Origin: Clostridiales bacterium
Lineage (GTDB): Bacteria; Bacillota; Clostridia; Christensenellales; Christensenellaceae
Length of the DNA stretch: 64,000 nt
Direction of reading: 5' to 3'
Assembly: GCA_015056045.1 (NCBI GenBank)
Contig: SVGZ01000007.1
Coordinates: 10,866 to 74,865 of the forward strand
The translations under genes and the position numbers were made by a program. The notes under the pieces were generated by a model. It worked only from the letters and a program-made list of their open reading frames with translations, had not been told where the DNA came from and did not search any database. Position 1 is the stretch's first letter; every line of letters starts with the position of its first letter. Positions 6,121-35,580 of this stretch are shown here, one piece after another.

Positions 6121-7036
6121 TAAAATCTCCTATTAAAATGACTTCCGGTTCAAGCGCTACGCCTTTTTTCTCCATGACCATAGACTGTACGCACTGCATG
6201 AGCAGGTAAATATCTCTTGCGCTTGCATGGAGATCGTTGACAACGAATCCTGCGTGCTTCATCGAAACGCAAGCACCGCCGACGCGGAATCCCTTTAATC
6301 CGCATTCATCGATAAGAGCCGCTGCATAATATCCCGTTGGGCGTTTAAAAGTACTGCCTGCACTCGGGAATTCAAGCGGCTGGGAAGTCTTTCTGCGGTT
6401 GTTCAGCTCCATGAGATGCTGCTTTGCTTCTTCGAGTTCGCTTTCTGTTTCGGCTTTTTTTAACCGGAAAGTTGCGGAAAGGATCGTCATGCCGCTGTTT
6501 TTAAAAACGCTCTTGCGATAGCCGAAAGCGCATTCTTCATTGGAAAGCGTTTCGACATTGCCATCGGGCATAAGAACTTCTGTGGAAATAAGAACGTCTT
6601 TGATCTCACCGCCGTATGCACCGGCATTCATCATCAGTGCACCGCCGACAGAACCGGGGATTCCGCCTGCAAATTCCATGCCGAAAAGCCCGTTCTTAAA
6701 ACCTGTCTGACAAACCGCAGATAACCTTGCGCCTGCCTGTGCGGTCAAAGTATCGCCGCTAATGGTAATAGCAGAGAAATTTTCCGCAAGACGAATGACA
6801 GCGCCATTGTAGCCTTTATCCGAAAATAAAAGATTGGAGCCAAGCCCGATGACCATATAAGGGAAATCATTTTCCGCAAAAAGAGAAGTGCAGAAAGCGA
6901 TCTCATCCGTATTTTTCGGCGAAATGAGTATTGCCGCATTACCGCCTGTGCGGAAGCTCGTATAGCTGCCCATCGGTGCGGATAATGTATAATCGATCCC
7001 TTTTTCGTTCAGTGCGGAAATAATATTTCTGATCAC
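6113..7036 (-). CDS. murB: UDP-N-acetylenolpyruvoylglucosamine reductase MurB
   Basis: SFRTGG, GLGSNLL and GGIPGSVGGA FAD-domain motifs. GTG start with GGAG 8 nt upstream. Confidence 0.93.
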   Translation of the reverse strand: MIRNIISALNEKGIDYTLSAPMGSYTSFRTGGNAAILISPKNTDEIAFCTSLFAENDFPYMVIGLGSNLLFSDKGYNGAVIRLAENFSAITISGDTLTAQAGARLSAVCQTGFKNGLFGMEFAGGIPGSVGGALMMNAGAYGGEIKDVLISTEVLMPDGNVETLSNEECAFGYRKSVFKNSGMTILSATFRLKKAETESELEEAKQHLMELNNRRKTSQPLEFPSAGSTFKRPTGYYAAALIDECGLKGFRVGGACVSMKHAGFVVNDLHASARDIYLLMQCVQSMVMEKKGVALEPEVILIGDFNA

Positions 7037-20479: not shown

Positions 20480-21047
20480 AATTCTTATCGAATTGCAAAA
20501 ACGCTTAAAACCGTCCCGCTATCAGCATACGCTTGGCGTCTGTGAAACGGCGATGCAGTTGGCAAAAATACATGGCGTTGACCTTGAAAAAGCCGAACTT
20601 GCAGCCTTATTGCACGATATTGCCAAACACGAATCTGATGACAAAATGCTTCAGGCGGCAAAGGAAATGCATTTTCCGCTTGAAGAAGCATATCTCGAAA
20701 CGCCGAACTTATTGCACGGCGTAATGTCGGCAAAAATCGCAAAAGATGAATTCGGGATCGATGATGAAGATATTCTGAATTCTCTTATATATCATACAGC
20801 CGGCAGAGAAAATATGAGCCTGCTGGAAAAAATCATCTACCTTGCGGATATTGCCGAACCGGGAAGAAAATTTTTTTCAGGAATAGAGGAGATTCGGCAT
20901 GCGATGTCGAATAATATTAATAGAGCGATGATTTTAGCGCTTCGCTCATCCATGACATATGTCATGCAGCAGGAAAAACTCCTTATCAAGGATACAGTAA
21001 AAGCATACAACAGCCTCATTGCGGAAGAACTGCAGAAAGGAACTTAA
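20469..21047 (+). CDS. yqeK: HD-domain bis(5'-nucleosyl)-tetraphosphatase YqeK
   Basis: RYQHTLGV and LLHDIAK HD motifs. Start overlaps the nadD stop. Conserved nadD-yqeK-rsfS order. Confidence 0.88.
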   Translation: MKNKILIELQKRLKPSRYQHTLGVCETAMQLAKIHGVDLEKAELAALLHDIAKHESDDKMLQAAKEMHFPLEEAYLETPNLLHGVMSAKIAKDEFGIDDEDILNSLIYHTAGRENMSLLEKIIYLADIAEPGRKFFSGIEEIRHAMSNNINRAMILALRSSMTYVMQQEKLLIKDTVKAYNSLIAEELQKGT

Positions 21048-21395
21048 ATGGTATTTTCTAAAAGAGTAAAAGAAGTAGCGAAAATATTGGATGATAAAAA
21101 AGCATCGGAGGTTTTGCTTCTCGATGTTTCGGGATCGACGATCATGGCGGATTATTTCGTTGTCTGCAGCGGTAATTCCAATCTTCATGTTCGCAGACTC
21201 GCCGAAGAGCTCGATGATGAGCTGATCAAACTCGGTTATGAAAGAATCAGAGTCGAAGGTTTAAGAGAAGGCAGATGGGTAGTTGCCGATTATGGCGATA
21301 TTTTGGTCCATATTTTCCATAAAGATGAACGAGAATTCTATGATATCGAACGTCTTTGGAAAAACGGAGATAACTATCTCGAATATGAAGGCTGA
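21048..21395 (+). CDS. rsfS: Ribosome silencing factor RsfS
   Basis: 115 aa with ADYFVVCSGNS, WVVADYGDILVHIF and YDIERLW motifs. Confidence 0.93.
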   Translation: MVFSKRVKEVAKILDDKKASEVLLLDVSGSTIMADYFVVCSGNSNLHVRRLAEELDDELIKLGYERIRVEGLREGRWVVADYGDILVHIFHKDEREFYDIERLWKNGDNYLEYEG

Positions 21396-21404
21396 TGACG
21401 GAAT

Positions 21405-21440
21405 AAAAAAAGGCGTGCATTTGCACGCCTCTTTCTTTTT
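21405..21440. terminator. Bidirectional intrinsic terminator
   Basis: AGGCGTGCA-TT-TGCACGCCT perfect palindrome, flanked by an A-run upstream and a T-rich run downstream. Confidence 0.8.
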
Positions 21441-21442
21441 GT

Positions 21443-22420
21443 TTATTCGGTTTTTGCTTCTTCTTTTGTTTCTTCGGCTGCTTTTGTTGCTGCATATTTT
21501 GCCATGCGCTTTTTATCGCCGCGCTTGATGAGAAGAACGATAACGACAACGATCACCGCCAGAATAAGCAGTACAGGCGATGCACCGATCAGGAATACAA
21601 CGAAATCTTCGAAGAATATCTTCATTTCATAAAGTGTATCGCCAAAGCTTTCGGAAATACGTTCGCCTAAAGTCTTTTCGGTCTTTGTTGTTACTGTCGC
21701 GCGGAAATATTCACGGATGTAGATTGTAACAGTGCTGTAATTGATCTGATTATCAAGGCGACGTTTGCTTCCGGAAAGTTTTTCGATCTGATAAATAATC
21801 TCGGAAAGCTCTTCGTTGAGGATGATGATATCTTCCATCTCTGTCGCCTGTTTCAAAAGCTCTTCCAGTTTTTCTTTTCTGAGTTCGAGAACTTCGAGTC
21901 TGCTTTCAAGATCAAAATACTGATCGGTAACATCTTCAACGGACTGTTCGAGGGAGATGTTTTTGCCGATGCCCTTTAAGGCTTCAATAAACTGCGGGTA
22001 AGCTTCCGCAGGAATGCGTGCTGTCAGCGTAGAGGTTCTCCCGGCATCACCTGCGACTTCGGGTTCTTTGCCATAGCTGCTTTCATCGGAAATATAGCCG
22101 CCGTAAACTTTGATGTTCTCCTTGATCTTCTGCAGGTCATCGGTATATTGTTCGCTAGTCATTTCGATGCGTGCGTTATAGATCAGTTTGAGGTTGCCCG
22201 TATCGAATTCGATCGCTTCTATGCTGTCTGCCATGGCTGCACTTTCCATTTCAATGGCTTCTTCTTCCATGACTTCTTCCATCATGACATCTTCGGCATA
22301 AAATTCCTGTGCTGTTGTGGAATAGCCCATTTCCATAGGAGCTTCGGATTTTGCAGCACAGCCTGCAAAAAGCATAGCAAGCATCAGCAGGATGGCAATC
22401 ATTCTTGTATTTCTCTTCAT
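21443..22420 (-). CDS. DUF4349 domain-containing lipoprotein
   Basis: LFAGCAA lipobox, coiled-coil middle, C-terminal TM. Y(N)A.I.. ..GGYISDES segment typical of DUF4349. Confidence 0.65.
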   Translation of the reverse strand: MKRNTRMIAILLMLAMLFAGCAAKSEAPMEMGYSTTAQEFYAEDVMMEEVMEEEAIEMESAAMADSIEAIEFDTGNLKLIYNARIEMTSEQYTDDLQKIKENIKVYGGYISDESSYGKEPEVAGDAGRTSTLTARIPAEAYPQFIEALKGIGKNISLEQSVEDVTDQYFDLESRLEVLELRKEKLEELLKQATEMEDIIILNEELSEIIYQIEKLSGSKRRLDNQINYSTVTIYIREYFRATVTTKTEKTLGERISESFGDTLYEMKIFFEDFVVFLIGASPVLLILAVIVVVIVLLIKRGDKKRMAKYAATKAAEETKEEAKTE

Positions 22421-22531
22421 ATTTTCCTCCTTATAAGCGGTTCTACTTAATAGACGAAAAAAAACGAAAGATTGTTCCCGAAAAATAAAAAATATTTATA
22501 CAGTCCGAATGTATTTTTTTCTTGTTTGCTC

Positions 22532-22560
22532 TTTACATTTATATTTCACGGTGCTATACT
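22532..22560 (+). promoter_or_regulatory. Sigma-A-type promoter of the aromatic amino-acid operon leader
   Basis: TTTACA (22532-22537), 17-nt spacer, TGcTATACT extended -10 (22552-22560). Confidence 0.6.
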
Positions 22561-22591
22561 TTTCATGTAAAAATTAAAGGAGACAAAAACC

Positions 22592-22678
22592 GTGCAGAAA
22601 CAGCATAGTTCAAAAGCATACTACTTTTACGGCAGCTTTACCTATTATTTTGGTAAGGCTTCTTTGGGTTTATGCTGA
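22592..22678 (+). CDS. Candidate leader peptide (28 aa, VQKQHSSKAYYFYGSFTYYFGKASLGLC) of an aromatic amino-acid attenuator
   Basis: GTG start 8 nt after AAAGGAG (22577-22583). Codons 10-20 (22619-22651) contain 5 Tyr and 3 Phe. Too short to appear in the ORF track. Confidence 0.55.
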   Translation: MQKQHSSKAYYFYGSFTYYFGKASLGLC

Positions 22679-22712
22679 CGAGCTTTCGGTTTTTGTTTTA
22701 ACTTGACCGTTC

Positions 22713-22744
22713 AAGCCCTGTGGGATAGACCCGCAGGGTTTTTT
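22713..22744 (+). terminator. Attenuator-type intrinsic terminator inside the aro operon 5' leader
   Basis: CCCUGUGGG-AUAGA-CCCGCAGGG (one G-U pair), extendable by AAG/UUU, followed by UUUUUU. It lies 35 nt before the aroF ATG. No upstream + strand gene needs it. Confidence 0.75.
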
Positions 22745-22778
22745 CATTATTAAGCAATCATTTTTTGAGGTATATATT

Positions 22779-23789
22779 ATGATCGTCGTATTAAAAAGCA
22801 ATCCGAACCAGAAACAGCTTGATAACCTGATGATGTGGCTCAGAAGCATGGATCTTGATATCCATACAAGTGAAGGTTCAAAACATACGATCCTCGGTCT
22901 CGTCGGTGATACTTCCAAGGTGGATATCGACCTGATCTCTGCGCTCGATATCGTAGATGAAGTCAAACGAATTCAGGAACCCTATAAAAATGCAAACAGA
23001 AAATTCCATCCCGAAGACAGCGTTATTGACGTCAATGGCGTTAAGATCGGCGGCGGTAATTTCCAGATCATTGCAGGCCCTTGTTCTGTTGAAACGGAAG
23101 AACAGATTTGTGAAGTTGCAAAAGATGTCAAAGCTTCTGGTGCAACACTTCTTCGCGGTGGTGCATTCAAACCGCGTACATCCCCTTATTCCTTCCAGGG
23201 TCTTGCAAACGAAGGTTTAAGACTCCTCCTTGAAGCAAAAGCAATGACAGGCCTTCCGATCGTTACGGAGATCATGGATATGTCTCAGCTCGATCTTTTT
23301 GGTGAAGTTGATATTATTCAGGTCGGTGCAAGAAATATGCAGAACTTCATGCTCTTAAAGGAACTCGGCAAAACAAATAAACCGATCCTCCTCAAGCGCG
23401 GTCTTTCGAGCACTTTGGAAGAGCTCCTGATGAGTGCGGAATACATTATGGCCGGCGGCAATGAAAAAGTTATTCTTTGCGAAAGAGGCATCCGTACATT
23501 CGAAACTTATACAAGAAATACGCTCGATCTATCCGCAATTCCTGTGCTCAAGAGATTAACGCATCTTCCGATCATCATTGACCCGAGCCATTCGACGGGC
23601 AAAGCTGCTCTTGTTGAGCCGATGTCCCTTGCGGCAACGGCAGCCGGTGCAGATGGCCTCATTATCGAAGTACATAATGATCCGCAGCATGCACTCTGTG
23701 ATGGTCCGCAGTCCATTACACCGGCAGCATTCGATAAACTTTCGAAGAAGATTTTTGGCTTAAGAAACTTCCTCACAGAAGAAAACTGA
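22779..23789 (+). CDS. aroF: 3-deoxy-7-phosphoheptulonate (DAHP) synthase, type I-beta with N-terminal ferredoxin-like regulatory domain
   Basis: GPCSVE, KPRTSPYSFQGL and DPSH motifs, plus an extra N-terminal domain of about 70 aa as in Thermotoga-type DAHPS. Confidence 0.95.
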   Translation: MIVVLKSNPNQKQLDNLMMWLRSMDLDIHTSEGSKHTILGLVGDTSKVDIDLISALDIVDEVKRIQEPYKNANRKFHPEDSVIDVNGVKIGGGNFQIIAGPCSVETEEQICEVAKDVKASGATLLRGGAFKPRTSPYSFQGLANEGLRLLLEAKAMTGLPIVTEIMDMSQLDLFGEVDIIQVGARNMQNFMLLKELGKTNKPILLKRGLSSTLEELLMSAEYIMAGGNEKVILCERGIRTFETYTRNTLDLSAIPVLKRLTHLPIIIDPSHSTGKAALVEPMSLAATAAGADGLIIEVHNDPQHALCDGPQSITPAAFDKLSKKIFGLRNFLTEEN

Positions 23790-23796
23790 GGTTCTT

Positions 23797-24645
23797 ATGA
23801 AAATTGGAGTAGTGGGAATGGGCCTTATCGGCGGTTCCCTTGCAAAAGCGATCAAAGAAAAAACAGAACACGAAGTCTACGGCTTTGATATTGCAAAAGA
23901 AGTCATGGCAAGAGCGATCCTTCTTGAAGCGATGGATGGCGCTCTTGATGATGCTATGCTTCAGCAATGCGAAATGCTTATTATTGCGCTTTACCCCGAG
24001 GCAGCACTTGATTATTTAAGAACACACGCATCGCTGATAAATAAGAATGCGATCGTCGTCGATACCTGCGGTGTCAAAGGCTATGTCTGTGATGAAGCAT
24101 GGTCGCTTGCGGATGAATACGGTTTCCGTTTTATCGGTGGTCACCCGATGGCCGGTCTTGCCAAAATCGGTTTTGGTCACGCAACTTCCGAAATGTTCTT
24201 CGGTGCTTCGATGATCATCTGCCCACGGAAAGACATCGATATCGAAACGATGAAAACTTTCAAAGATGTTTTCGATGCGATTGGTTTTGGTCATTACGAA
24301 ATTGCAACGCCCGAAAAGCATGACCGCATCATTGCCTATACGAGTCAGCTCGCACACGTCCTTTCCAATGCCTACATCAAAAGCGAAACGGCAAAAGATC
24401 ATTACGGTTATTCTGCCGGCAGCTTCCGTGATATGACGCGTGTTGCTTACCTCAATGAAAATATGTGGACGGAGCTTTTCTTTGAAAACAAAGACTTTCT
24501 GGCAAACGAGATCGATGGTTTGGCGGAAAGACTTCTGCAGTATTCCAAAGCCTTAAAAGAAAACGATGAAGAAGGCATGAAATCGCTTCTCCGTGAAGGC
24601 CGTCTGGCAAAAATGGATGTTGACGAAAGAAGCAAAAGAAACTAA
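23797..24645 (+). CDS. tyrA: Prephenate dehydrogenase
   Basis: VVGMGLIGGSLA Rossmann motif, GGHPMAG catalytic motif. Confidence 0.92.
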   Translation: MKIGVVGMGLIGGSLAKAIKEKTEHEVYGFDIAKEVMARAILLEAMDGALDDAMLQQCEMLIIALYPEAALDYLRTHASLINKNAIVVDTCGVKGYVCDEAWSLADEYGFRFIGGHPMAGLAKIGFGHATSEMFFGASMIICPRKDIDIETMKTFKDVFDAIGFGHYEIATPEKHDRIIAYTSQLAHVLSNAYIKSETAKDHYGYSAGSFRDMTRVAYLNENMWTELFFENKDFLANEIDGLAERLLQYSKALKENDEEGMKSLLREGRLAKMDVDERSKRN

Positions 24646-24646
24646 C

Positions 24647-25702
24647 ATGAAAAAACTGACGATCAATACAACAAAACCTTATGATATCTATATCGGCGCA
24701 GGCATTCTTTCCCAAGCCGGCAAACTCATCAAAGAACGCTTCAGCAAGAGCCGCATTGCGCTCGTTTCCGAAACCAATGTCTTTCCGCTTTACGGGGAAA
24801 AAGTTCTTTCCGTTTTACGGGAAGAAGGCTTCGATGTTGTTACCCATATTTTTGAAGCCGGCGAAGCGCAGAAAAATATGCAGACTGTCATCGAGATTTT
24901 GGGTACACTCAGCGAAAATAAGCTCACAAGAACGGATATCGTTGTTGCTTTGGGCGGTGGTGTAACGGGTGATATGGCTGGTTTTGCTTCGGCAATTTAT
25001 CTGCGCGGAATCAAATGCGTACAGATCCCAACGAGCTACCTTGCAGCGGTCGATTCCTCAACCGGCGGAAAAACGGCAGTTGACCTTCCTGCAGGCAAAA
25101 ACCTTGCCGGTGCATTCCATATGCCTTCGCTCGTCATCTGTGATACGGATTGTTTCAAAACGCTCAGCAAAGAAACTTTTGAAGACGGCGTTGCCGAAAG
25201 CATAAAGCACGGTCTTATCGCCGATGCGGATTTCTTCCGTTTTATGCTTGAAAACGATATTACAGAAAATATTGAAGAAGTTGTTCGCCGCAATGTTGAG
25301 ATCAAAACAAGCTTTGTACTTGGTGATGAAAAAGATACGGGCAAGCGGCAGATGCTGAATTTTGGTCATACGATCGGCCATGCTGCCGAAAAGGTCAGCA
25401 ATTTTGCCTTGACACACGGTCATGCCATTGCGATCGGTATGGCAGTCGTCCTTCGTGCACAGGAAAAACTCGGTATCGGTGAAGCCGGTATGACGGAAAA
25501 ACTTCTTGCTGCTTTGAAAAAATATGATCTTCCGAGCGAATGCCCCTATTCCGCAGAACAGCTGATGAGTGCAGCATTGCAGGATAAAAAACGTGCAGGC
25601 GATAAGATCAGCCTTGTCTGCCTCGAAAAACCGGGCAAAGCTTTCTTAAAACCGATGAATATGGAGGAGCTTGAAGATATCATCAGGCTTGGACTCGAAT
25701 AA
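24647..25702 (+). CDS. aroB: 3-dehydroquinate synthase
   Basis: GGGVTGDMAGFA, PTSYLAAVDSSTGGKTAV and FGHTIGHA motifs. ATG at 24647 lies just after the tyrA stop. Confidence 0.95.
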   Translation: MKKLTINTTKPYDIYIGAGILSQAGKLIKERFSKSRIALVSETNVFPLYGEKVLSVLREEGFDVVTHIFEAGEAQKNMQTVIEILGTLSENKLTRTDIVVALGGGVTGDMAGFASAIYLRGIKCVQIPTSYLAAVDSSTGGKTAVDLPAGKNLAGAFHMPSLVICDTDCFKTLSKETFEDGVAESIKHGLIADADFFRFMLENDITENIEEVVRRNVEIKTSFVLGDEKDTGKRQMLNFGHTIGHAAEKVSNFALTHGHAIAIGMAVVLRAQEKLGIGEAGMTEKLLAALKKYDLPSECPYSAEQLMSAALQDKKRAGDKISLVCLEKPGKAFLKPMNMEELEDIIRLGLE

Positions 25703-26967
25703 TGGACAGAATCGTTAAAAATATGCCGCTTTATGGAGTGATTCCTGCGATCGCTTCCAAATCGCAGGCACACAGAGCGCTGATCTGTGCAGCTTTTGCT
25801 GACGGTGTTTCCAAAATCATCATCAATGCTGCATCAAAAGATATCGATGCGACGGCAAATTGCCTTTGTGCGCTTGGCGCCAGGATCAGCCAAAACGGAG
25901 CAATCTGGGAAGTTACACCAATCAAAAACAAATCTATAGAAAAGCCTTTGCTCGCTTGCGGTGAAAGCGGTTCAACATTCCGTTTTCTGCTTCCCGTTGC
26001 GGCGGCAGCTTTTGAAAATATCAGCTTTTGCGGCGAGGGAAGATTACCCGAAAGACCGATCGGCCCGTTGATGGATGAAATGAAAAAGCACGGTTCTGTG
26101 TTTTCTGCGGAAAAGCTTCCGTTCAGTGTTTCAAAACTCCAAAACGGCGGTGATTTCTATCTTCCCGGCAATGTCAGCTCACAGTTTGCCAGCGGACTTT
26201 TGATGGCAGCTCCGCTTCTTCCGGATGGTGTTCAAATCCATTTTGATAAAACACGCGAATCTATGGGTTATATTGAAATGACAGTCCACATGTTGAAAAA
26301 CTTCGGCGTTGTCGTGGAAAAAACAGAAGACGGTTTCTCTGTTGCAAAAGGGCAGCATTATCACGCAGTTCCCGAACTAATGGTCGAAGGCGACTGGTCC
26401 AATGCCGCTTTCTGGCTTTGCGGAGCTGCGATCGCAGGCGAAGTAACGGTTACGGGTCTTGCGCTTGATTCCGCACAGGGCGACAGAGCAGTGCTCAATG
26501 TCCTACGGGAAATGGGTGCGGAAATCATAACTGACGGAAATTCCGTTACGGTAAAAAAATCAAAGCTCAGAGCAACGGTGATCGATGCAAGAGAAATTCC
26601 CGATCTTGTGCCGGTTTTATCGCTGACAGCCGCTTTGGCAGAAGGAGAAACAAAAGTTATCAATGCCGCAAGGCTCCGCATCAAGGAAAGCGACAGATTA
26701 AAGACAACGACAGAGCTCTTATCCGGTTTGGGAGCCGATATTACAGAGCTTGAAGACGGGCTTATCATCCGCGGAAAAGATATGCTTTTTGGCGGTGAAG
26801 CTGACGGTGCAAACGATCATCGCATCGTCATGACGGCAGCCATTGCAGCATCCCGTTCGGAAAATCCTGTTCTGATCAAAGGGACAGAGGCAGCGGCAAA
26901 ATCCTATCCCGCATTTTTTGAAGACTTGGAAAAAACAGGAGGTCATTCCGATGTCGTTTTACGGTGA
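25702..26967 (+). CDS. aroA: 3-phosphoshikimate 1-carboxyvinyltransferase (EPSP synthase)
   Basis: SKSQAHRALI, GESGSTFRFL, LRIKESDR and DHRIVM motifs. 1-nt overlap with the aroB stop. Confidence 0.95.
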   Translation: MDRIVKNMPLYGVIPAIASKSQAHRALICAAFADGVSKIIINAASKDIDATANCLCALGARISQNGAIWEVTPIKNKSIEKPLLACGESGSTFRFLLPVAAAAFENISFCGEGRLPERPIGPLMDEMKKHGSVFSAEKLPFSVSKLQNGGDFYLPGNVSSQFASGLLMAAPLLPDGVQIHFDKTRESMGYIEMTVHMLKNFGVVVEKTEDGFSVAKGQHYHAVPELMVEGDWSNAAFWLCGAAIAGEVTVTGLALDSAQGDRAVLNVLREMGAEIITDGNSVTVKKSKLRATVIDAREIPDLVPVLSLTAALAEGETKVINAARLRIKESDRLKTTTELLSGLGADITELEDGLIIRGKDMLFGGEADGANDHRIVMTAAIAASRSENPVLIKGTEAAAKSYPAFFEDLEKTGGHSDVVLR

Positions 26968-28018
26968 TAAAATTCGGATAAGCGTTTTTGGTGAATCGCA
27001 TGGCGAAGCCATCGGTACTGTGATCGAAGGGCTTCCCGCAGGATTCAGAATTGATATGGAAAAGCTCGGTGATTTCCTGAAAAGAAGAGCACCCGGCGGA
27101 AAATACACAACAAAACGTAAAGAAGCAGATGAACCGAAGTTTATTTCGGGGCTTATGGATGGCGTCACAACAGGCGCTCCTTTAACGGCACTCATTTATA
27201 ACACAAATACCCGTTCGGGCGATTATGCCAAATTAAAGGAAATCCCTCGTCCTTCTCATGCAGATTATCCTGCCTATGTGAAATTCGGCGGATTTAACGA
27301 TATCCGCGGTGGCGGTCATTTTTCCGCAAGGATAACAGCGCCTCTCTGCATCGCAGGCGGTATATTGCTGCAGATGCTTGAGGAAAAGGGAATTCACATT
27401 GGATCTCATATCTATGAGATCGCCGGTGTTCCCGATGAAGCTTTTGATCCGATGCTGTGTGATTTGGAAAAGCTTCACGCAGCCGGAAAAAAAGATTTTG
27501 CCGTTCTTGATGACGATGCAGGTGAGAAGATGAAAGAAAAAATCGCCTCCGCAGCACTTGCCGGTGATTCCGTCGGCGGTATCATCGAATGTGCAATTCT
27601 GGGTCTTCCTGCAGGGCTTGGCGATACGCTTTTCTCCGGTCTTGAGGGAATGATCGCACAGGCGGTTTTTGCGATTCCTGCGGTCAAAGGGCTTGAATTC
27701 GGTGCAGGTTTTGCTGCTGCTAGAAAAATGGGCTCGGAAAATAACGATCCTTATGCCTATATCGATGGGGAAGTGAAAACACTCAGCAATAATGCCGGCG
27801 GTATTCTTGGCGGAATTTCGACAGGTATGCCGATCATCTTCCGTGCAGCATTTAAGCCGACGCCTTCCATCGCAAAGGAACAGAATTCCATCAATTTAGC
27901 AAGCAAAGAAAATGTTAAGCTGGCGATCACAGGGAGACATGACCCTTGTGTAGCCGTGCGTGCAGCAGCCATTGTTGAAGCCGTTGCAGCCGCAGCCATC
28001 GCCGGGCTTGTTTTATAA
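26951..28018 (+). CDS. aroC: Chorismate synthase
   Basis: FGESHG, RPSHADY, GGGHFSAR and GRHDPCV motifs. ATG at 26951 follows ACAGGAGG. Confidence 0.95.
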   Translation: MSFYGDKIRISVFGESHGEAIGTVIEGLPAGFRIDMEKLGDFLKRRAPGGKYTTKRKEADEPKFISGLMDGVTTGAPLTALIYNTNTRSGDYAKLKEIPRPSHADYPAYVKFGGFNDIRGGGHFSARITAPLCIAGGILLQMLEEKGIHIGSHIYEIAGVPDEAFDPMLCDLEKLHAAGKKDFAVLDDDAGEKMKEKIASAALAGDSVGGIIECAILGLPAGLGDTLFSGLEGMIAQAVFAIPAVKGLEFGAGFAAARKMGSENNDPYAYIDGEVKTLSNNAGGILGGISTGMPIIFRAAFKPTPSIAKEQNSINLASKENVKLAITGRHDPCVAVRAAAIVEAVAAAAIAGLVL

Positions 28019-28037
28019 ATTTAAAGAGGTAAAAAAT

Positions 28038-29177
28038 ATGGGACTTTTGGAAATCCGTGATAAGATCAATACAGTTGATGACCAGTTATTGAAACTTTTC
28101 CTTGAAAGAATGGAACTTTCGAGAGAAATTGCCGAAGAAAAGATAAAACAGAATCTGCCGATCCTCAATACAAAGAGAGAAAGAGAAGTATTATCCCGTA
28201 TCAGCGCCAATTCCGGCGATATGGATGGCTATGCACGCATCCTTTTCTCGACATTGTTTGAGCTTTCCCGTTCCTATCAGGGCAGCTGCATGGGCACCAC
28301 AAAATCCAAGCTTGCTGAAAAGATCTATGCTGCGCTTGATGAAACACCGAAGCTTTTCCCCGCAAAGGCTGTTGTTGCCTGCCAGGGTATCGAAGGCGCA
28401 AATTCGCAGCAGGCTTGCGACAGAATGTTCTCTTTCGCAGATATCATGTATTTCAAAAATTTCGAAGGCGTTTTCAATGCTGTTGAAAAAGGTCTTTGCG
28501 AATACGGTGTTCTTCCGATCGAAAATTCCGCACACGGTTCTGTAAACGATGTTTATGACCTCATGCAGGGTCATAGTTTCAATATCGTCCGCAGTATCAA
28601 GCAGCATATTACCCATAATCTGCTCGTACTCCCGGGAACGAAGCTTTCCGATATCAAGGAAGTCATTTCTCATCCGCAGGCAATCGGTCAGTGCAGCAGC
28701 TTCATTGCGAAAATCGGTGCAAAATCGACCTACGTGGAAAATACTGCCGTTGCAGCCGAAATGCTCGCAGGAATGGGCAGAAGGGATGTTGCAGCGATCT
28801 CTTCCGAAGAATGTGCGGCGATGTATGGCCTTGAGATCTTAAAAGGCAATATCCAGAATACAGACAATAACTATACGCGCTTCATCGCAATCTCCAAAAA
28901 GCTGGAGATCTATCCCGGTTCGAGCAAGATCAGCCTCATGTTCACCACGACAGATACACCCGGTTCTTTATCCCGTATCATGTCCAGATTTTCTTCTATC
29001 GGCGTAAACCTTTCCAAGATCGAAAGCCGCCCGATGAGCGGATCGGATTTCAAATATGTCTTCTATACAGACCTCGATGCTTCTGTTTACTCCGAAGAAG
29101 TCATCAAGCTGCTTTCCGAAATGGAACGTGAGCTGAAATTCTTCGTCTTCCTCGGCAGCTATCAGGAAATCGTATGA
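28038..29177 (+). CDS. pheA: Bifunctional chorismate mutase / prephenate dehydratase
   Basis: N-terminal AroQ-type CM (LEIRDKINTVDDQLLKLF), PDT domain (ENSAHGSV, TRF) and a C-terminal ACT domain (PGSL...NLSKIESRP). Confidence 0.92.
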   Translation: MGLLEIRDKINTVDDQLLKLFLERMELSREIAEEKIKQNLPILNTKREREVLSRISANSGDMDGYARILFSTLFELSRSYQGSCMGTTKSKLAEKIYAALDETPKLFPAKAVVACQGIEGANSQQACDRMFSFADIMYFKNFEGVFNAVEKGLCEYGVLPIENSAHGSVNDVYDLMQGHSFNIVRSIKQHITHNLLVLPGTKLSDIKEVISHPQAIGQCSSFIAKIGAKSTYVENTAVAAEMLAGMGRRDVAAISSEECAAMYGLEILKGNIQNTDNNYTRFIAISKKLEIYPGSSKISLMFTTTDTPGSLSRIMSRFSSIGVNLSKIESRPMSGSDFKYVFYTDLDASVYSEEVIKLLSEMERELKFFVFLGSYQEIV

Positions 29178-30397
29178 AATACGCACTTATCGGCCGCACG
29201 CTTGGGCACAGCTATTCCGTTCCGATTCATGCCGGTTTCGGAAACAGCGATTATATCTTAAAAAATCTTGAACCCGAAGCACTTGAAGGATTCATCAAAG
29301 GGAGAGATTTCTGCGGTCTCAATGTAACGATCCCGTATAAACAGGCAGTCATGCCTTTCCTTGATGAAATTGATGCTTCTGCTCTTGCGATCGGCAGCGT
29401 CAATACCGTTGTCAATAAAAACGGCAAGCTCTATGGCTATAATACCGATATTGACGGAATGCGCCTGCTGGCAAAAAAAGCAGGTATTGCGCTTTCGGGG
29501 AAAAAAGTTCTTGTCTTAGGCAGCGGCGGAACTTCCCTTACGGCAAGAGCTTTGGCAAAAAGTGAAGGCGCAAAAGTGATCCTTGTCGTTTCAAGAAGCG
29601 GTAAGGTCAATTATGACAATGTCTATGACGAAAGCGATGCGGAGATCATCATCAATACAACGCCCGTGGGCATGTTCCCGAATAACGGAAAAGCAGCTCT
29701 TGATTTAAGCCGTTTCCCGAAATTGACAGGCGTTCTCGATGCCGTTTATAATCCGCTGAAAACAGAACTGATCTTAGAAGCGGAAAATTTAGGTATTCCT
29801 GCTGCAGGCGGACTTTTCATGCTCGTTGCGCAAGCAAAAAGAGCAGAGGAGCTTTTCTTTGATAAAGTGATCGCCGACGAAGAAAATGAGCGTGTCTATC
29901 GTATGCTGATGCAGAGCTTCCGCAATATCGTTCTGATCGGTATGCCCGGCTGTGGGAAAACGACCGTTGGGAAAGCCCTTGCAAAAAAACTCGGCAGAGA
30001 ATTTGTTGATATAGATGCTTTGATTGAAAAGAATGCAAAAAAGAGTATTCCCGAGATCTTCGCGGATGACGGCGAAGATGTTTTCAGACAGTTTGAAACG
30101 GAAGCTGCCATCGAAGCCGGCAAAATGACGGGTAAGATCATTGCCTGTGGCGGTGGGATCGTCACAAGGGAAAGAAACTATCGACCGCTGAAACAGAATG
30201 CTCTGATCGTTCGCCTTGTGCGCAGTCTGGATAGGCTCGCAATGGATGGCAGACCGCTTTCTTCTTCCCGCGAAAAACTCACAGAAATGCAGAAGGAAAG
30301 AGAACCGCTCTATCTGCGATTTGCCGATGTCAGCTTTGAAAATGATACAACGATCGAAGACCTGACGGAAAAGATCCTGGAGGAATTTAACAAATGA
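29174..30397 (+). CDS. aroE/aroK: Fused shikimate dehydrogenase / shikimate kinase
   Basis: N-terminal SDH (GHSYSVPIH, NVTIPYK, NTD.DG) and a C-terminal kinase of about 170 aa (GMPGCGKTTVGK, GGG). ATGA overlaps on both sides. Confidence 0.9.
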   Translation: MKYALIGRTLGHSYSVPIHAGFGNSDYILKNLEPEALEGFIKGRDFCGLNVTIPYKQAVMPFLDEIDASALAIGSVNTVVNKNGKLYGYNTDIDGMRLLAKKAGIALSGKKVLVLGSGGTSLTARALAKSEGAKVILVVSRSGKVNYDNVYDESDAEIIINTTPVGMFPNNGKAALDLSRFPKLTGVLDAVYNPLKTELILEAENLGIPAAGGLFMLVAQAKRAEELFFDKVIADEENERVYRMLMQSFRNIVLIGMPGCGKTTVGKALAKKLGREFVDIDALIEKNAKKSIPEIFADDGEDVFRQFETEAAIEAGKMTGKIIACGGGIVTRERNYRPLKQNALIVRLVRSLDRLAMDGRPLSSSREKLTEMQKEREPLYLRFADVSFENDTTIEDLTEKILEEFNK

Positions 30398-30828
30398 AAA
30401 TTCTTGTGATAAATGGTCCAAATATCAATATGCTGGGAATCCGTGAAAAGGGTATTTACGGAAAAGAAGATTTTGATTATCTGATCAATTTGATCGAAAA
30501 GACCTGTGCTGAAAATGAAATTGAAGTTGAGTGCTTCCAGTCCAATCATGAAGGTGCGATCGTCGATAAGATCCAGTCTGCTTACGGAAAATTTGATGGC
30601 ATCGTCATCAATCCCGCTGCTTATACGCATACAAGTGTTGCGATCCTCGATGCCTTAAAAGCCGTCAGTATTCCTGCTGTTGAAGTGCATATCTCCAATG
30701 TCTATGAGAGAGAAGCTTTCCGCCATATAAGCTATGCCGGCATGGCCTGCGAAGAGCATATGATCGGCAAAGGTCTTAATGGCTATGTCGAAGCGATTTT
30801 ATACCTCAAAAATAAATACGGAAACTAA
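30394..30828 (+). CDS. aroQ: Type II 3-dehydroquinate dehydratase
   Basis: INGPNINMLGIRE, the QSNHEG motif, INPAAYTHTS and HISN motifs. Confidence 0.95.
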   Translation: MKILVINGPNINMLGIREKGIYGKEDFDYLINLIEKTCAENEIEVECFQSNHEGAIVDKIQSAYGKFDGIVINPAAYTHTSVAILDALKAVSIPAVEVHISNVYEREAFRHISYAGMACEEHMIGKGLNGYVEAILYLKNKYGN

Positions 30829-30833
30829 AAATG

Positions 30834-30860
30834 AAAGCGCTCCAAACGGGCGCTTTTTTA
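30834..30860 (+). terminator. Intrinsic terminator of the aro operon
   Basis: AAAGCGC-tccaaacgg-GCGCTTT, followed by TTTT. Confidence 0.7.
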
Positions 30861-30980
30861 AATTATTGCTGTTTGAAAGAAATAAGCTTCCTCTTGTAAA
30901 TCGCTTGTCTAAACGGGAAAAAAGTTATACAATATATTTGTGCTTCTATGCATTCAACTTGTACATCAGCGGAGGAGATT

Positions 30981-32462
30981 ATGAAAAACATTCCTGAAGT
31001 GAAGCTTGGCGTCATTGCTGTCAGCAGAGATTGCTTCCCGATCACGCTTTCCACAAAGCGCAGAGAAAGGCTTGTCGAAGCGTTCAATGCGAAATACGGC
31101 GAGATCTATAACTGCAAAACAACAGTCGAAAATGAAACCGATATGCTGAAGGCAGTTGCCGATGTAAAAGAAAACGGTGTCAATGCTCTGGTCGTTTTCC
31201 TTGGCAACTTTGGTCCGGAAACACCCGAAACGCAGATCGCACAGTATTTTGATGGTCCTGTCATGTATGTCGCAGCTGCTGAAGAAGATATTGCTGTTTT
31301 ATCCTCCGAAAGAGGCGATGCTTATTGCGGAATGCTCAACTGTTCCTATAACCTTGGCCTTCGCAGGATCAAAGCCTATATTCCCGAATATCCCGTTGGC
31401 ACAGCTGAAGAAGTTGCCGATATGGTTGCGGAATTTGTTCCCGTGGCAACGGCACTGCTCGGTATCTCCAGCCTCAAAATTATTACATTCGGCCCGAGAC
31501 CGCAGGATTTCTTTGCATGCAATGCTCCGATCAACCAGCTCTATGAACTTGGTGTAGAAATCGAAGAAAATTCCGAACTCGATCTTTATGAATCCTATAA
31601 TGCACACGAAGGTGACCCGAGGATCGCTGATGTTATGGCAGATATGGCCGCTGAACTTGGCGATGGCAATAAGATGAGCGGTATTCTGCCAAGGCTCGCA
31701 CAGCTCGAACTTACGCTTCTCGATTGGGCAGAAGCACATAAAGGCAGCAGAAAGTATGTCGCATTTGCCAATAAGTGCTGGCCGGCTTTCCAGACGACAT
31801 TCAAATGCGTTCCCTGCTATGTCAACTCCCGCTTAACAGCAATGGGTATTCCCGTAGCCTGCGAAGTTGACGTCTACGGCGCACTTTCCGAATATATCGG
31901 AACCTGCATTTCCGGAGCACCTGTAACGCTGCTCGATATGAACAACACAGTTCCGAAGGAACTCTATGATGCAGAGATCAAGGGCAAATTCAACTATCGT
32001 CTCCGTGAGACATTCATGGGCTTCCATTGCGGAAACACGCCTATGTGCCGTCTGGCAAAAGGTGAAATGAAATATCAGCTCATCATGAAGCGCTCCCTTG
32101 AACCGGATAGTGAACCCGACATCACGCGCGGTACACTCGAAGGCGATATCGCACCCGGAGACATCACCTTATACAGACTTCAGGGTGCTGCAGACGGCTC
32201 ACTCAGAGCTTATATCGCACAGGGCGAAGTTCTTCCCGTTCCGACACATTCCTTCGGCGGTATCGGCGTAATGGCGATCCCCGAAATGGATCGTTTCTAT
32301 CGTCATGTTCTCATCGAAAAGCGTTATCCGCATCACGGCGCATTCGCTTTCGGCAAATGGGGCAAAGCGATCGACTCCGTATTCCGTTACCTTGGCGTAA
32401 AGGATATTGCCTATAATAAACCTGCCGGCAGCCTTTATGAAACGGAATGCCCTTTTAACTAA
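30981..32462 (+). CDS. L-fucose/L-arabinose isomerase family protein
   Basis: 493 aa. ATG follows GGAGGAG. The KLGVIAVSRDCFP N-terminus and overall architecture resemble the COG2407 sugar isomerase family. Substrate unknown. Confidence 0.6.
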   Translation: MKNIPEVKLGVIAVSRDCFPITLSTKRRERLVEAFNAKYGEIYNCKTTVENETDMLKAVADVKENGVNALVVFLGNFGPETPETQIAQYFDGPVMYVAAAEEDIAVLSSERGDAYCGMLNCSYNLGLRRIKAYIPEYPVGTAEEVADMVAEFVPVATALLGISSLKIITFGPRPQDFFACNAPINQLYELGVEIEENSELDLYESYNAHEGDPRIADVMADMAAELGDGNKMSGILPRLAQLELTLLDWAEAHKGSRKYVAFANKCWPAFQTTFKCVPCYVNSRLTAMGIPVACEVDVYGALSEYIGTCISGAPVTLLDMNNTVPKELYDAEIKGKFNYRLRETFMGFHCGNTPMCRLAKGEMKYQLIMKRSLEPDSEPDITRGTLEGDIAPGDITLYRLQGAADGSLRAYIAQGEVLPVPTHSFGGIGVMAIPEMDRFYRHVLIEKRYPHHGAFAFGKWGKAIDSVFRYLGVKDIAYNKPAGSLYETECPFN

Positions 32463-32492
32463 TCAACAATATCGAAAGGATATCAAATAACT

Positions 32493-33494
32493 ATGTATGT
32501 AGCAAATGAAAACAGATATGACAAGATGTTATATCGTCGCTGCGGCAAGAGCGGTGTACTTCTCTCTGCTGTCGGTCTTGGTTTCTGGCACAACTTCGGC
32601 GTAACCGCTTCTTTCGAAAACTGCACGAATCTCGTTCGTACAGCATTCGATCTTGGCATCACCTATTTTGACCTTGCTAACAACTATGGTCCTTATGATG
32701 GTTATGCAGAAGAAACATTCGGCAAGATCCTCGAAAAGGATATGAAGCCCTATCGTGATGAAATGTTCATCGCAACAAAAGCCGGTTACTATATGTGGCC
32801 CGGTCCTTATGGCGATGGCGGCAGCAAGAAATACCTCGTTTCTTCCCTCGATCAGAGCTTGAAACGCATGGGTCTTGACTATGTAGATCTCTATTATCAT
32901 CACAGACCCGATCCGGAAACACCCATCGAAGAAACAGCTGACGCTCTTGCAGGCATCGTTCGCAGCGGCAAGGCTCTCTATGTCGGTATTTCCAACTACA
33001 CACCCGAACAGACAAAGGCTATCGTTGATGAGCTCGCAAAGCTTGGCGTACACTGCCTGATCCATCAGCCGAGATACAACATGTTCAACAGAACAGTTGA
33101 AGAAGGACTCTATGATGTTTTAGCACAGGAAGGCATGGGCGCAGCTCCGTTCTGCCCGCTCGCACAGGGTCTCCTCACAAACCGTTACTTCAACGGTATT
33201 CCGGAAGATTCCCGCGCAAACGGCCATTCCAGATTCTTAACATCTGAATCCGTTACAGAGGAAAATGTTGAAAAAGCTAAGAAGCTCAACGTTATCGCTG
33301 AAAGAAGAGGCCAGACACTGGCTCAGATGGCTCTTGCTTGGAACCTCCGTACAGAAGTCACCACTTCCGTTATCATCGGCGCAAGCAAAACAAGCCAGAT
33401 CATCGACAATGTCAAGGCTGTTGAAAACGTTAAGTTCACAAAAGAAGAATTAGACGAAATCGACGCTATCCTTGGCAATACAAAGGTATTCTAA
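32493..33494 (+). CDS. Aldo/keto reductase (YghZ/L-glyceraldehyde-3-phosphate reductase-like)
   Basis: GLGFWHNFG, FDLANNYG and the DLYYHHRPD motif. Residues consistent with the AKR catalytic tetrad are present. Confidence 0.85.
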   Translation: MYVANENRYDKMLYRRCGKSGVLLSAVGLGFWHNFGVTASFENCTNLVRTAFDLGITYFDLANNYGPYDGYAEETFGKILEKDMKPYRDEMFIATKAGYYMWPGPYGDGGSKKYLVSSLDQSLKRMGLDYVDLYYHHRPDPETPIEETADALAGIVRSGKALYVGISNYTPEQTKAIVDELAKLGVHCLIHQPRYNMFNRTVEEGLYDVLAQEGMGAAPFCPLAQGLLTNRYFNGIPEDSRANGHSRFLTSESVTEENVEKAKKLNVIAERRGQTLAQMALAWNLRTEVTTSVIIGASKTSQIIDNVKAVENVKFTKEELDEIDAILGNTKVF

Positions 33495-33502
33495 GAACTA
33501 TA

Positions 33503-33536
33503 AAAAAGAGCAGGGTATAAACCCTGCTTTTTTGTT
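33503..33536. terminator. Bidirectional intrinsic terminator
   Basis: AGCAGGG-tataaa-CCCTGCT, flanked by A-run and T-run. Confidence 0.8.
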
Positions 33537-34114
33537 TATTCTTTTGAAAAAACCTTCATGCCGACGCCGTAATCATAAATCAGAATATCTTTTGGCATAC
33601 GCGAAAAGAGAACCGTCACATAAAGATCGCCAGCAGCTCCTGAAATATTAAAAGCCTGGATCAGGAAAACCACCCAGAACCATTCCGTGGGAACAAACAG
33701 CTGTACGATTAGAAGGACGATGCCCCAAAGGACGATCGGTGACAAAGCGATAAAAATATAAGCTTTTTTATTATAATAATCTTCGCTGCCTGCAAAAGCG
33801 TATTGCCCGACAAATCCGTATTTGACTTTCTTTGTTCCGCAGATCTTCATGGCGATCCCATGCACCATTTCATGGAGAACAATATAAAGAACCGAAAGGA
33901 TCAGCAGAGCAAAAAATCTGATCAGAAAAAGACTTTCTCCCTGTTCATAGGAGAATAACTCCGTGATAGGGATATAAAAATGCATCGGGACGATCATCAA
34001 AATGCTGATGACGATCGCAAGAAGGTTTACCGTAATGTTCGCTTTTTTATTTTTCTTCAGGTCGAGCGAAAAAATCTCTTCATATCTTTCGGGCAAAGCG
34101 CTGTATGCTTTCAT
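33536..34114 (-). CDS. DUF3267 putative membrane zincin peptidase
   Basis: Polytopic membrane protein with an HEMVHG (HExxH) motif in a hydrophobic context. Confidence 0.6.
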   Translation of the reverse strand: MKAYSALPERYEEIFSLDLKKNKKANITVNLLAIVISILMIVPMHFYIPITELFSYEQGESLFLIRFFALLILSVLYIVLHEMVHGIAMKICGTKKVKYGFVGQYAFAGSEDYYNKKAYIFIALSPIVLWGIVLLIVQLFVPTEWFWVVFLIQAFNISGAAGDLYVTVLFSRMPKDILIYDYGVGMKVFSKE

Positions 34115-34231
34115 TTGGAAATCTCCCTTTTCTCATATTCTTTGCTCATGATAACGCTTTTTCCTTTTCAAGTAAACATCTTTATAAAGAAAAAGACCTG
34201 CCGGTTAAAGCAGGTCTTTCTTATATTCGTC

Positions 34232-35197
34232 TTAGATTCTGTTGGAGCTGCCGAGAACGTTTGCGATCTTGTTCTTAACAACTTCTTTGACCATAGCACG
34301 TGCCGGTTTGAGGTACTGTCTGGGGTCGAAGTGAGACGGATTTTCTGCGAAGTGCTTGCGGATGGAAGCTGTGAGAGCAAGACGGAGGTCGGAGTCGATG
34401 TTGATCTTGCAGACAGAAAGCTTAGCAGCTTCGCGAAGCTGTTCTTCCGGAATACCGATAGCATCGGGCATTTCGCCGCCATACTTGTTGATGATAGCTA
34501 CGAGGTCCTGCGGAACGGAAGAGGAACCGTGGAGAACGATCGGGAACTGGGGAAGTCTGTTGCAGATTTCCTTGAGGATGTCGAAACGAAGCGGCGGCGG
34601 TACGAGGATACCCTTTTCATTGCGTGTGCACTGTTCAGCTCTGAATTTGTAAGCACCGTGGCTTGTACCGATAGCGATAGCCAGGGAGTCAACACCTGTC
34701 TTGGAAACGAATTCTTCAACTTCTTCAGGTCTTGTGTAGGAAGAATCTTCAGCGGAAACCTTGATTTCATCTTCTACGCCTGCGAGTCTGCCAAGTTCGC
34801 CTTCAACAACAACGCCTCTGTCGTGAGCATATTCAACGACTTTCTTTGTGAGAGCGATGTTTTCTTCAAAGGGAAGATGGGAACCGTCGATCATAACGGA
34901 TGTGAAACCGCCTTCGATGCAGGAAACGCATGTTTCGAAGCTGTCACCATGGTCGAGGTGAAGAACGATCGGGAGACCTGTTACGTCGACTGCTGCTTCG
35001 ACGAGCTTCTTCAGATATACAGGGTTAGCATAAGCTCTTGCGCCTTTGGAAACCTGAAGGATAAGAGGAGAGTTTTCTTCTCTTGCAGCTTCGGTAATAC
35101 CCTGGATAAGTTCCATGTTGTTTACGTTGAATGCGCCGATAGCGTATCCGCCTTCGTAAGCTTTTTTGAACATTTCGGTAGATGTTACGAGTGGCAT
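34232..35197 (-). CDS. fba: Class II fructose-1,6-bisphosphate aldolase
   Basis: GAFNVNN, LHLDHG, MIDGS, GTSHGAYK and LVLHGSSSVP-like motifs. Confidence 0.95.
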   Translation of the reverse strand: MPLVTSTEMFKKAYEGGYAIGAFNVNNMELIQGITEAAREENSPLILQVSKGARAYANPVYLKKLVEAAVDVTGLPIVLHLDHGDSFETCVSCIEGGFTSVMIDGSHLPFEENIALTKKVVEYAHDRGVVVEGELGRLAGVEDEIKVSAEDSSYTRPEEVEEFVSKTGVDSLAIAIGTSHGAYKFRAEQCTRNEKGILVPPPLRFDILKEICNRLPQFPIVLHGSSSVPQDLVAIINKYGGEMPDAIGIPEEQLREAAKLSVCKINIDSDLRLALTASIRKHFAENPSHFDPRQYLKPARAMVKEVVKNKIANVLGSSNRI

Positions 35198-35259
35198 AGT
35201 TTAGTCCTCCATATAAATTTATAAAGTCTGCTTTTTACGGCAGCTCATAATCCTTTACT

Positions 35260-35288
35260 ATTGTAGCAATTTCCACGCTTTTAAGCAA
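35260..35288 (-). promoter_or_regulatory. Sigma-A-type promoter for fba
   Basis: Minus strand: TTGCTT (35283-35288), 17-nt spacer, TACAAT (35260-35265). Confidence 0.5.
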
Positions 35289-35580
35289 GATAAATTTACC
35301 TGAAAACAAAAAAGCACAGCGTTGCGTATGGATTTTTGAAAATGGACCCGGTGCCAATGCCCGAATCAAAAATATTATAGCATTGAACGCCAAAATACTC
35401 AAACCTTTTTGCTCTTTATTTCACATTTTTGGTATAAAAAATACTGACAAGCGCATTATTCCCCAAAATACAAACTTGTATGACTTTAAAATAAACCTTC
35501 TCTTGTAAAAAGGCATAAAAGCGTATAAAATAAAACCATACGAATATGTATAATATTACCTTAACTGAAAGGGAAACAAA

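Follow-up and report, generated by a model that had tools for sequence, protein, structure and literature searches.

The window analysed here, a 64-kb stretch of contig SVGZ01000007.1 from a bacterium of the Clostridiales, carries an operon for aromatic amino-acid biosynthesis that begins with aroF (start codon ATG at 22779) and is preceded by a leader region, the aroF leader, with a promoter, a short open reading frame (ORF) rich in Tyr and Phe codons and an intrinsic terminator (Table 1). The genes of the operon were assigned with NCBIfam, which identified both tyrA and pheA, the product of the latter being a chorismate mutase/prephenate dehydratase (CM/PDT), and found no trp genes in the operon downstream of the leader. 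An earlier reading of this DNA from its letters and ORFs (the sequence-only reading) had likewise described an operon that makes Phe and Tyr and lacks trp genes, and the codon content of the leader, with Tyr and Phe and no Trp, thus fits the terminal enzymes encoded by tyrA and pheA. The nearest upstream gene (21443-22420) lies on the minus strand and is transcribed away from the leader, again as previously read, so that the leader transcript is the sole one on which the terminator can act. In a motif scan of positions 21000-35500 the leader promoter was among the three best promoter-like sites, and the aroF leader terminator was the top terminator-like site of the same interval. The core of this terminator is CCCUGUGGG-AUAGA-CCCGCAGGG-U6 and, with an AAG/UUU extension, its stem spans 22713-22741. 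Transcription of the leader is predicted to start near 22567, and the ORF is predicted to be translated from its GTG codon. The promoter, the Shine-Dalgarno (SD) sequence, the GTG-initiated ORF, its Tyr/Phe run and the terminator are all found where the sequence-only reading had placed them. Two of its distances were adjusted: AAAGGAG and GTG stand as described, but their spacing, given as 8 nucleotides (nt), measures 9 nt, and the gap between stop codon and terminator, given as 35 nt, measures 34-37 nt according to the position chosen as the start of the stem, a minor correction.

Table 1. Features of the aroF leader and of the operon behind it; positions refer to the window.
Feature	Positions	Strand	Description
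Sigma-70-type promoter	22532-22560	+	TTTACA-17-TGcTATACT; 10/12 matches, extended -10 TG
SD sequence of leader ORF	22576-22582	+	AAAGGAG; 9 nt ahead of GTG
Long closing helix of untranslated leader (predicted)	22580-22699	+	22580-22596 (SD/start) pairs with 22683-22699; encloses ORF, sequesters region 2
Leader ORF	22592-22678	+	28 codons and stop, VQKQHSSKAYYFYGSFTYYFGKASLGLC; GTG 22592, UGA 22676-22678; homologous Phe/Tyr-rich ORFs in relatives
Tyr/Phe codon run	22619-22651	+	YYFYGSFTYYF (codons 10-20); 5 Tyr, 3 Phe, 0 Trp; 8/11 codons Tyr/Phe
Apex hairpin within ORF	22634-22660	+	AGCUUUACC-UAUUAUUUU-GGUAAGGCU; codons S-F-T ... G-K-A; U-rich tract after
Region 2, antiterminator 5' strand	22666-22685	+	GGGUUUAUGCUGACGAGCUU; last three codons, UGA stop, 7 nt beyond
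Region 3	22713-22732	+	terminator 5' arm, loop and first CCC of 3' arm; pairs with region 2 or region 4
Intrinsic terminator	22713-22744	+	AAGCCCUGUGGG-AUAGA-CCCGCAGGGUUU and U run; 12 pairs (7 G-C), -20.3 kcal/mol
Operon	22779-30828	+	aroF, tyrA, aroB, aroA, aroC, pheA (CM/PDT), aroE-aroK fusion, aroQ (NCBIfam)

The leader was compared across 80 loci from species-representative genomes fetched by AroF (67-78% identical), 79 of which gave usable upstream regions. These loci belong mostly to metagenome-assembled genomes (MAGs) of Oscillospiraceae, Acutalibacteraceae, Lachnospiraceae and other Clostridia; a few come from bins with the label Synergistaceae/Fretibacterium, and one, L019, is from a cultured organism, Bacilliculturomica massiliensis Marseille-P3303, and carries the leader. 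The gene order aroF-tyrA-aroB-aroA is common to 53 of the 80. Taking a small ORF with at least six Phe/Tyr in 11 codons as a leader ORF, we found one in 69 of the 79 upstream regions, against none in the reverse complements and 2.0 in dinucleotide shuffles. At the level seen in the window (eight of 11 codons) there were 33 loci, against none in 1580 dinucleotide shuffles (20 for each of the 79 homologous upstream regions), and the Tyr/Phe run is thus far beyond chance. The only other small ORF in the window with at least eight Phe/Tyr in 11 codons, the Phe-rich ORF of 15 codons at 6416-6463 (MLLCFFEFAFCFGFF), was rejected as spurious, as it lies antisense within a 307-amino-acid ORF on the minus strand (6113-7036). 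ATG is the start codon of 40 of the 44 non-redundant leaders, and in 37 of the 44 four or more nt of an SD sequence are matched at positions -20 to -4. The relatives also show -10-like elements (TATAAT or TATACT), which stand at the upstream end of the 40 nt preceding the leader start codon. Phe and Tyr make up 17.4% and 13.4% of the codons of these 44 leaders and Trp only seven codons in all; together they account for 30% of the codons in frame but for 8% and 13% when the two alternative frames are read, and internal stops number none in frame versus 39 and 90 out of frame. The ORFs are 13 to 40 codons long and the remaining peptide is variable, whereas the Phe/Tyr run is constant and is spelled with a mixture of synonymous codons (TAC 85, TAT 84, TTT 171, TTC 48). 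Since the start, the SD sequence, the open frame and the Phe/Tyr codons are kept while synonymous choice is free, selection appears to act on translated Tyr and Phe codons, and not on a peptide or an aptamer. By strict criteria, terminators were found at the equivalent position in 61 of the 79 relatives. The short ORF, the Tyr/Phe run and the terminator, whose conservation before orthologous aroF genes the sequence-only reading had proposed to check, are therefore conserved features.

A single Trp codon occurs in a minority of leaders (L001, L022, L023, L031, L034, L049 and L189), often just before G-K-A as in YFWGKA, and may reflect differing feedback of Trp supply on the common pathway. Several close AroF relatives come from MAGs labelled as other phyla, namely L049 and L065 (Fretibacterium), L057 (Coriobacteriales) and L025 (Spirochaetales); the Phe/Tyr leader is present in the first three and not in L025, which points to either horizontal transfer of a leader-plus-operon unit or binning contamination.

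The sequence-only reading had found no convincing antiterminator by eye. Folding the segment downstream of the Tyr/Phe run as a duplex with the 5' half of the terminator revealed one, a helix between regions 2 and 3 that is the minimum free energy (MFE) structure of 22664-22732 (-21.8 kcal/mol, z = -3.09), a stability equalled by one of 200 shuffles. In this helix GGGUUUAU is paired to AUAGACCC (22725-22732), that is, to the terminator loop and the CCC of its 3' arm, and at the base GCUU (22682-22685) is paired to AAGC (22713-22716). One of the two short complementarities noted before, GGGUUU (22666-22671), does open the antiterminator strand, but its partner is AUAGACCC and not AAGCCC. The other, GGCUU with AAGCC, is absent from the best folds, where AAGC is engaged with GCUU at 22682-22685. 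Because 20 nt are common to both structures, antiterminator and terminator are mutually exclusive, as the folding proposed with the sequence-only reading was meant to reveal. The position of region 2 also fits a decision taken by a ribosome: 14 nt separate it from the last Phe codon, so that a ribosome stalled within 22619-22651 would leave it uncovered, and its extent, from the third-last codon to the seventh nt after the stop, would place it under a ribosome halted at the UGA.

The same arrangement recurs locus after locus: a segment that starts about 16 nt past the last Phe/Tyr codon forms a helix with the terminator, over the distal part of its 5' arm, its loop and the bases that open its 3' arm. 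The mean energy of the duplex of regions 2 and 3 is -18.96 kcal/mol within a locus versus -12.98 kcal/mol across loci, and the own duplex beats the cross-locus mean in all 44 non-redundant loci. When region 2 was shuffled with its composition preserved, the own duplexes had a median z-score of -2.53, and 30 of the 44 lay below -2. In addition, 51 non-redundant leaders, cut off before the terminator 3' arm, were aligned with MAFFT without supervision and folded with RNAalifold, which predicted exactly two elements, a hairpin within the ORF and the long-range helix of regions 2 and 3. Pairs of the latter are canonical in 87% of cases, compared with 78% when the partners were permuted (maximum 81.7% in 1000 permutations) and 17-44% when the strands were slid by one to three columns, and it shows double-sided exchanges of G-C and C-G (26:8), G-C and A-U (31:7) and U-A and C-G (27:8). 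The distance from the last Phe/Tyr codon to region 2 has a median of 16 nt (interquartile range 14-18, 95% within 8-24), as would be expected if the strand has to lie immediately beyond a stalled ribosome. These data bear on a simpler explanation, namely that termination is constitutive and partial, or the arrangement a product of chance, with a terminator that dampens or insulates and a Phe/Tyr ORF that has no regulatory role in the window. Such an explanation is in keeping with the moderate antiterminator statistics of the window taken by itself, but we consider it most improbable, as the Phe/Tyr ORF, the terminator, the covarying antiterminator and their fixed spacing recur in dozens of species and the element is, among the metagenome matches listed, exclusively associated with aroF.

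The free leader is predicted to fold differently. The whole leader (22567-22790) folds at -65.4 kcal/mol (z = -4.67), and the long hairpin 22580-22699, which reaches about -41 kcal/mol when folded alone, stands beside the terminator. In this MFE structure region 1, the A-Y-Y-F codons at about 22613-22632, pairs with 22662-22677, and as region 2 is thereby buried with region 1 in the long hairpin, termination would be the default without translation. Across the family, the energy of the pairing of regions 1 and 2 is -13.45 within loci versus -10.72 between loci and is better within the locus in 27 of 37 cases, a weaker support than that for regions 2 and 3. A closing helix like the one in the window is also found in L001, L009 and L017, and it could serve to keep all but the first ribosome from translating the leader, or to make termination the default.

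On this evidence the leader of the aro operon is very probably a ribosome-mediated transcription attenuator that senses Tyr and Phe through charged tRNA-Tyr and tRNA-Phe. Transcription would begin near 22567 and a ribosome would load on the leader ORF at GTG 22592. When Tyr and Phe are plentiful, this ribosome would reach the UGA at 22676-22678 and cover region 2 (22666-22685), so that region 3 would pair with region 4 into the terminator hairpin and the polymerase would halt at the U run (about 22744), giving a transcript of about 175 nt. When Tyr or Phe is short, the ribosome would stall at the Tyr/Phe codons of 22619-22651, the proposed stalling sites, and mask region 1, and the exposed region 2 would pair with the terminator 5' arm, loop and first 3'-arm bases before the remaining 3' arm is transcribed. 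With the terminator thus blocked, the polymerase would read through into aroF-tyrA-...-pheA-...-aroQ. With no ribosome loaded, region 2 would be locked with region 1 and the SD region in the long hairpin, and termination would result by default. The elements themselves, with their conservation, covariation and spacing, are observed in the sequences, while translation of the ORF, the stalling, the timing of folding and the actual regulation of the aro operon are parts of this model that we infer.

Several observations weigh against the attenuator model. First, the terminator is favoured at equilibrium with P ~0.997, and the model would therefore hinge on co-transcriptional kinetics. In itself, the energy difference is what a switch decided by kinetics, like the classical attenuators, should show: once the complete 3' arm is included, the terminator state (-27.4 kcal/mol) lies about 4 kcal/mol below the antiterminator state (-23.3 kcal/mol). 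Second, the specificity of the duplex in the window alone is moderate (own versus cross-locus z of -1.1 to -1.5, shuffle z of -1.8), so that the case for the antiterminator rests on the family. Third, the SD sequence and the start codon are paired in the closing helix, and ribosome loading must consequently precede transcription of 22683-22699. Furthermore, the window leader starts with GTG while ATG is the start codon in 40 of the 44 relatives. In some relatives, the L003 group, the stop codon follows region 2 at a distance of 20-26 nt, so that a terminating ribosome would not mask region 2, and these leaders must rely on re-pairing of regions 1 and 2. Finally, about 10 of the 79 close AroF relatives are without a Phe/Tyr leader ORF (among them L025, L045, L058, L061, L067, L068, L072, L078 and L080), and in these no T-box or other Rfam element was found in its place.

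The second element of the alignment, the hairpin within the ORF, occurs in 25 of the 44 non-redundant leaders. The 19 leaders that lack it still have the Phe/Tyr run, the antiterminator and the terminator, and therefore the codon run, not the hairpin, is the universal feature. Some A-U to G-C compensatory changes are seen in the hairpin in the 51-leader alignment and, together with the U-rich tract that follows (22634-22671 in the window), it was flagged by the terminator scan in many relatives (L003, L004, L005, L009, L010, L013, L017, L031, L034, L035, L039, L041, L051 and L065). By analogy with the pause hairpin 1:2 of trp, we infer that it is a candidate site for RNA polymerase pausing and synchronisation. 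Rather than a passive part of region 1, the hairpin might also be a dedicated device for coupling, keeping RNA polymerase in place until it is melted by the leading ribosome, or might show the Tyr/Phe codons of its loop to a trans factor such as uncharged tRNA; we regard these more specific roles as unlikely. Either of them, if true, would mean that a leader-peptide attenuator of a dominant group of human-gut Clostridia has a second layer of sensing. The hairpin at 22634-22660 also explains the conserved peptide segment S-F-T...G-K-A. The conservation of this segment (S-F-T-Y-Y-F-G-K-A) in about half of the family, and the prediction of the peptides by gene callers on more than 1000 contigs, might suggest that the product of the short ORF has a function of its own, as a small hydrophobic protein or as a TnaC-like nascent peptide that arrests the ribosome on sensing free Phe/Tyr in its tunnel. 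The chance of this is very small in our estimate: the conserved residues coincide exactly with the two hairpin arms that show the compensatory A-U/G-C changes, the other sequence, the length (13-40 amino acids) and the C-terminus are not conserved and many members barely exceed the Phe/Tyr run, the leader peptides match no Pfam or NCBIfam family, and a sensor of the free amino acids would be expected to induce a catabolic and not a biosynthetic operon.

The hairpin and the strong folding of the leader (z = -4.67, as above) could also be taken as signs that the RNA senses something other than the position of a ribosome, the ORF being incidental. The sensor would then be a riboswitch, a protein- or tRNA-binding attenuator (T-box, TRAP or PyrR-like) or a new aptamer built on the GCUUUACC...GGUAAGGC hairpin, which, where present, is conserved and varies little in its nucleotides, is specific to aroF and displays Tyr/Phe codons in its loop. 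Searches for known elements speak against this explanation. Rfam 15 had no match at the gathering score anywhere in the 64-kb window, including Phe_leader and the other curated amino-acid leader models, and at E<=10 the leader gave seven chance-level matches, none of them a T-box. Three of the seven are on the leader strand within the leader, to the trpB motif (E=0.41), PyrR (E=4.6) and ceN30; the trpB-motif and PyrR matches were dismissed, as their confident alignment is mainly over the terminator and that upstream is of low confidence. The best match in the leader to the T-box 14-mer AGGGTGGTACCGCG has six mismatches, and of the TRAP-type array (9-11 (G/U)AG triplets, 2-3 nt apart) only five isolated triplets occur in 212 nt, the longest chain being 1. 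A T-box was likewise not found by Rfam in the 19 related loci without a strict leader-plus-terminator call, where the sole matches were two unrelated riboswitches in L071. The sequence-only reading had seen no T-box in the leader and had proposed an Rfam search to exclude known elements; like its other computational tests, this one came out in its favour. Moreover, the 19 leaders without the hairpin retain the Phe/Tyr ORF, the antiterminator and the terminator, and a conserved start, SD sequence, open frame and Phe/Tyr codons with free synonymous choice are the signature of coding and not of an aptamer. We therefore hold sensing by something other than ribosome position to be highly improbable.

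The pheL-pheA, trpL, hisL and thrL leaders of enterobacteria combine a short ORF with clustered cognate codons, alternative 1:2, 2:3 and 3:4 hairpins and an intrinsic terminator, and terminate by default when untranslated. The aroF leader of Clostridia shares this anatomy and appears to share the working principle, and the enterobacterial architecture that the sequence-only reading had seen in it is complete, with ORF, codon cluster, terminator, antiterminator and anti-antiterminator all present. Nevertheless, no similarity in sequence or to the Rfam models links the two. The hosts are Clostridia and, for the pheL class, a proteobacterium; the Clostridia leader mixes Tyr and Phe codons whereas pheL uses Phe alone; and it precedes, and would control, the whole common pathway with tyrA and pheA, in contrast to pheA alone. 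Also unlike in the enterobacterial leaders, the antiterminator extends into the terminator loop and 3' arm, and about half of the family has the extra conserved hairpin within the codon run. T-boxes bind uncharged tRNA directly and do not need translation. T-box leaders (RF00230) of aromatic genes in Firmicutes resemble the aroF leader in position, in the terminator/antiterminator output and in the tRNA-charging signal, but both a T-box model match and the T-box sequence are absent from the latter.

Precedents for such a leader exist in other phyla. In Corynebacterium glutamicum a leader peptide with the codons Phe-Tyr-Phe was predicted upstream of aroF and attenuation was proposed (PMC4046766). 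As compared by description, it has the same gene and aromatic codons in common with the Clostridia leader and differs in its host (Actinobacteria), in having three regulatory codons and in showing no evident sequence relation. The motif uORFC-13-1 precedes aroF in Acholeplasma and in environmental sequences that are unassigned; it was described from 24 sequences in Acholeplasma and has a U run coding for at least one Phe, with no mixture of Tyr and Phe reported (Brewer et al. 2021, PMC8632094). It resembles the Clostridia family in its upstream ORF, ribosome-binding site, Phe codons and adjoining intrinsic terminator, in its location exclusively before aroF, in an extra base-paired element and in the attenuation proposed for it; it is set apart by description only, and its environmental members might overlap with the family. 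Within the Firmicutes, His leader-peptide attenuators were predicted for hisS/hisZ in bacilli (PMC2965389) and for his operons of the Bacillus cereus group, Peptostreptococcaceae and Erysipelotrichales (PMC9413887). Like the aroF leader, these are regular leader-peptide attenuators in place of T-boxes known from comparative genomics only, but they concern another amino acid and other operons and are unrelated in sequence. The surprise that the sequence-only reading expressed at such an attenuator in a Firmicute was therefore overstated, with these predictions and the aroF precedents (PMC8632094, PMC4046766) already at hand, and since the attenuation mechanism is a textbook one the conceptual advance is modest. 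A full-text literature search, which missed most subscription journals, gave no description of the Clostridia aroF leader family, and it is apparently a large, undescribed family common in gut Clostridia.

The spread of the family beyond the 80 loci was followed with a metagenome query for the motif of the internal hairpin (GCTTTACC-TWY-TWY-N0-6-GGTAAGGC), which matched at least 120 metagenome contigs, mostly from the human gut. In every listed contig with enough downstream DNA, AroF begins 79-192 nt past the leader stop, with two exceptions: in contig L174 the leader ORF has lost its stop codon and ends 14 nt ahead of aroF, and one listed contig without aroF is an evident chance match. Several variants of the leader peptide were predicted by gene callers on more than 1000 contigs each, the abundant ones including MTVMNRSAEYRYFSFTYFMGKAYSGLAESKRV and MKLSAKLTAKYFPYYFSFTYFYGKAYLRLTADREMTAPSRA. 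Their database names are only "hypothetical protein" or "Uncharacterised protein", and the named sources are Oscillospiraceae, Oscillibacter, Firmicutes bacterium CAG:129 and Acutalibacteraceae. The NCBI record DAN32647.1 puts the leader peptide MTVMNRSAEYRYFSFTYFMGKAYSGLAESKRV in 'Bacteriophage sp.', a label that probably stems from a mis-binned bacterial contig.

The proposed ribosome-mediated attenuator offers a concrete and testable mechanism by which Oscillospiraceae and related gut Clostridia would control their synthesis of aromatic amino acids. These bacteria are abundant in the human and animal gut, mostly uncultured and barely known in their gene regulation. Judged by its codons, the aroF leader would be a joint sensor of Tyr and Phe, and the family would be a large and well-populated addition to the short list of leader-peptide attenuators beyond Proteobacteria and Actinobacteria. 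On thousands of contigs, small ORFs named "hypothetical protein" should be re-annotated as leader peptides of the aro operon, and a model for Rfam or NCBIfam could be built from the leader alignment. The leader could also be used as a Phe/Tyr-responsive part for engineering gut anaerobes.

In one related locus (L071) ZTP and cobalamin riboswitches lie at 1285-1366 and 2490-2687 (minus strand), at most 2 kb upstream of aroF and unrelated to the aro leader. In the distal part of the operon of the window, a single 407-amino-acid ORF at 29174-30397 joins shikimate dehydrogenase (residues ~3-237) and shikimate kinase (~250-407) in an aroE-aroK fusion. A perfect sigma-70 consensus (12/12, TTGACA-18-TATAAT) lies within its coding region at 29723-29752 and could be an internal promoter for the distal genes of the operon or a product of chance.

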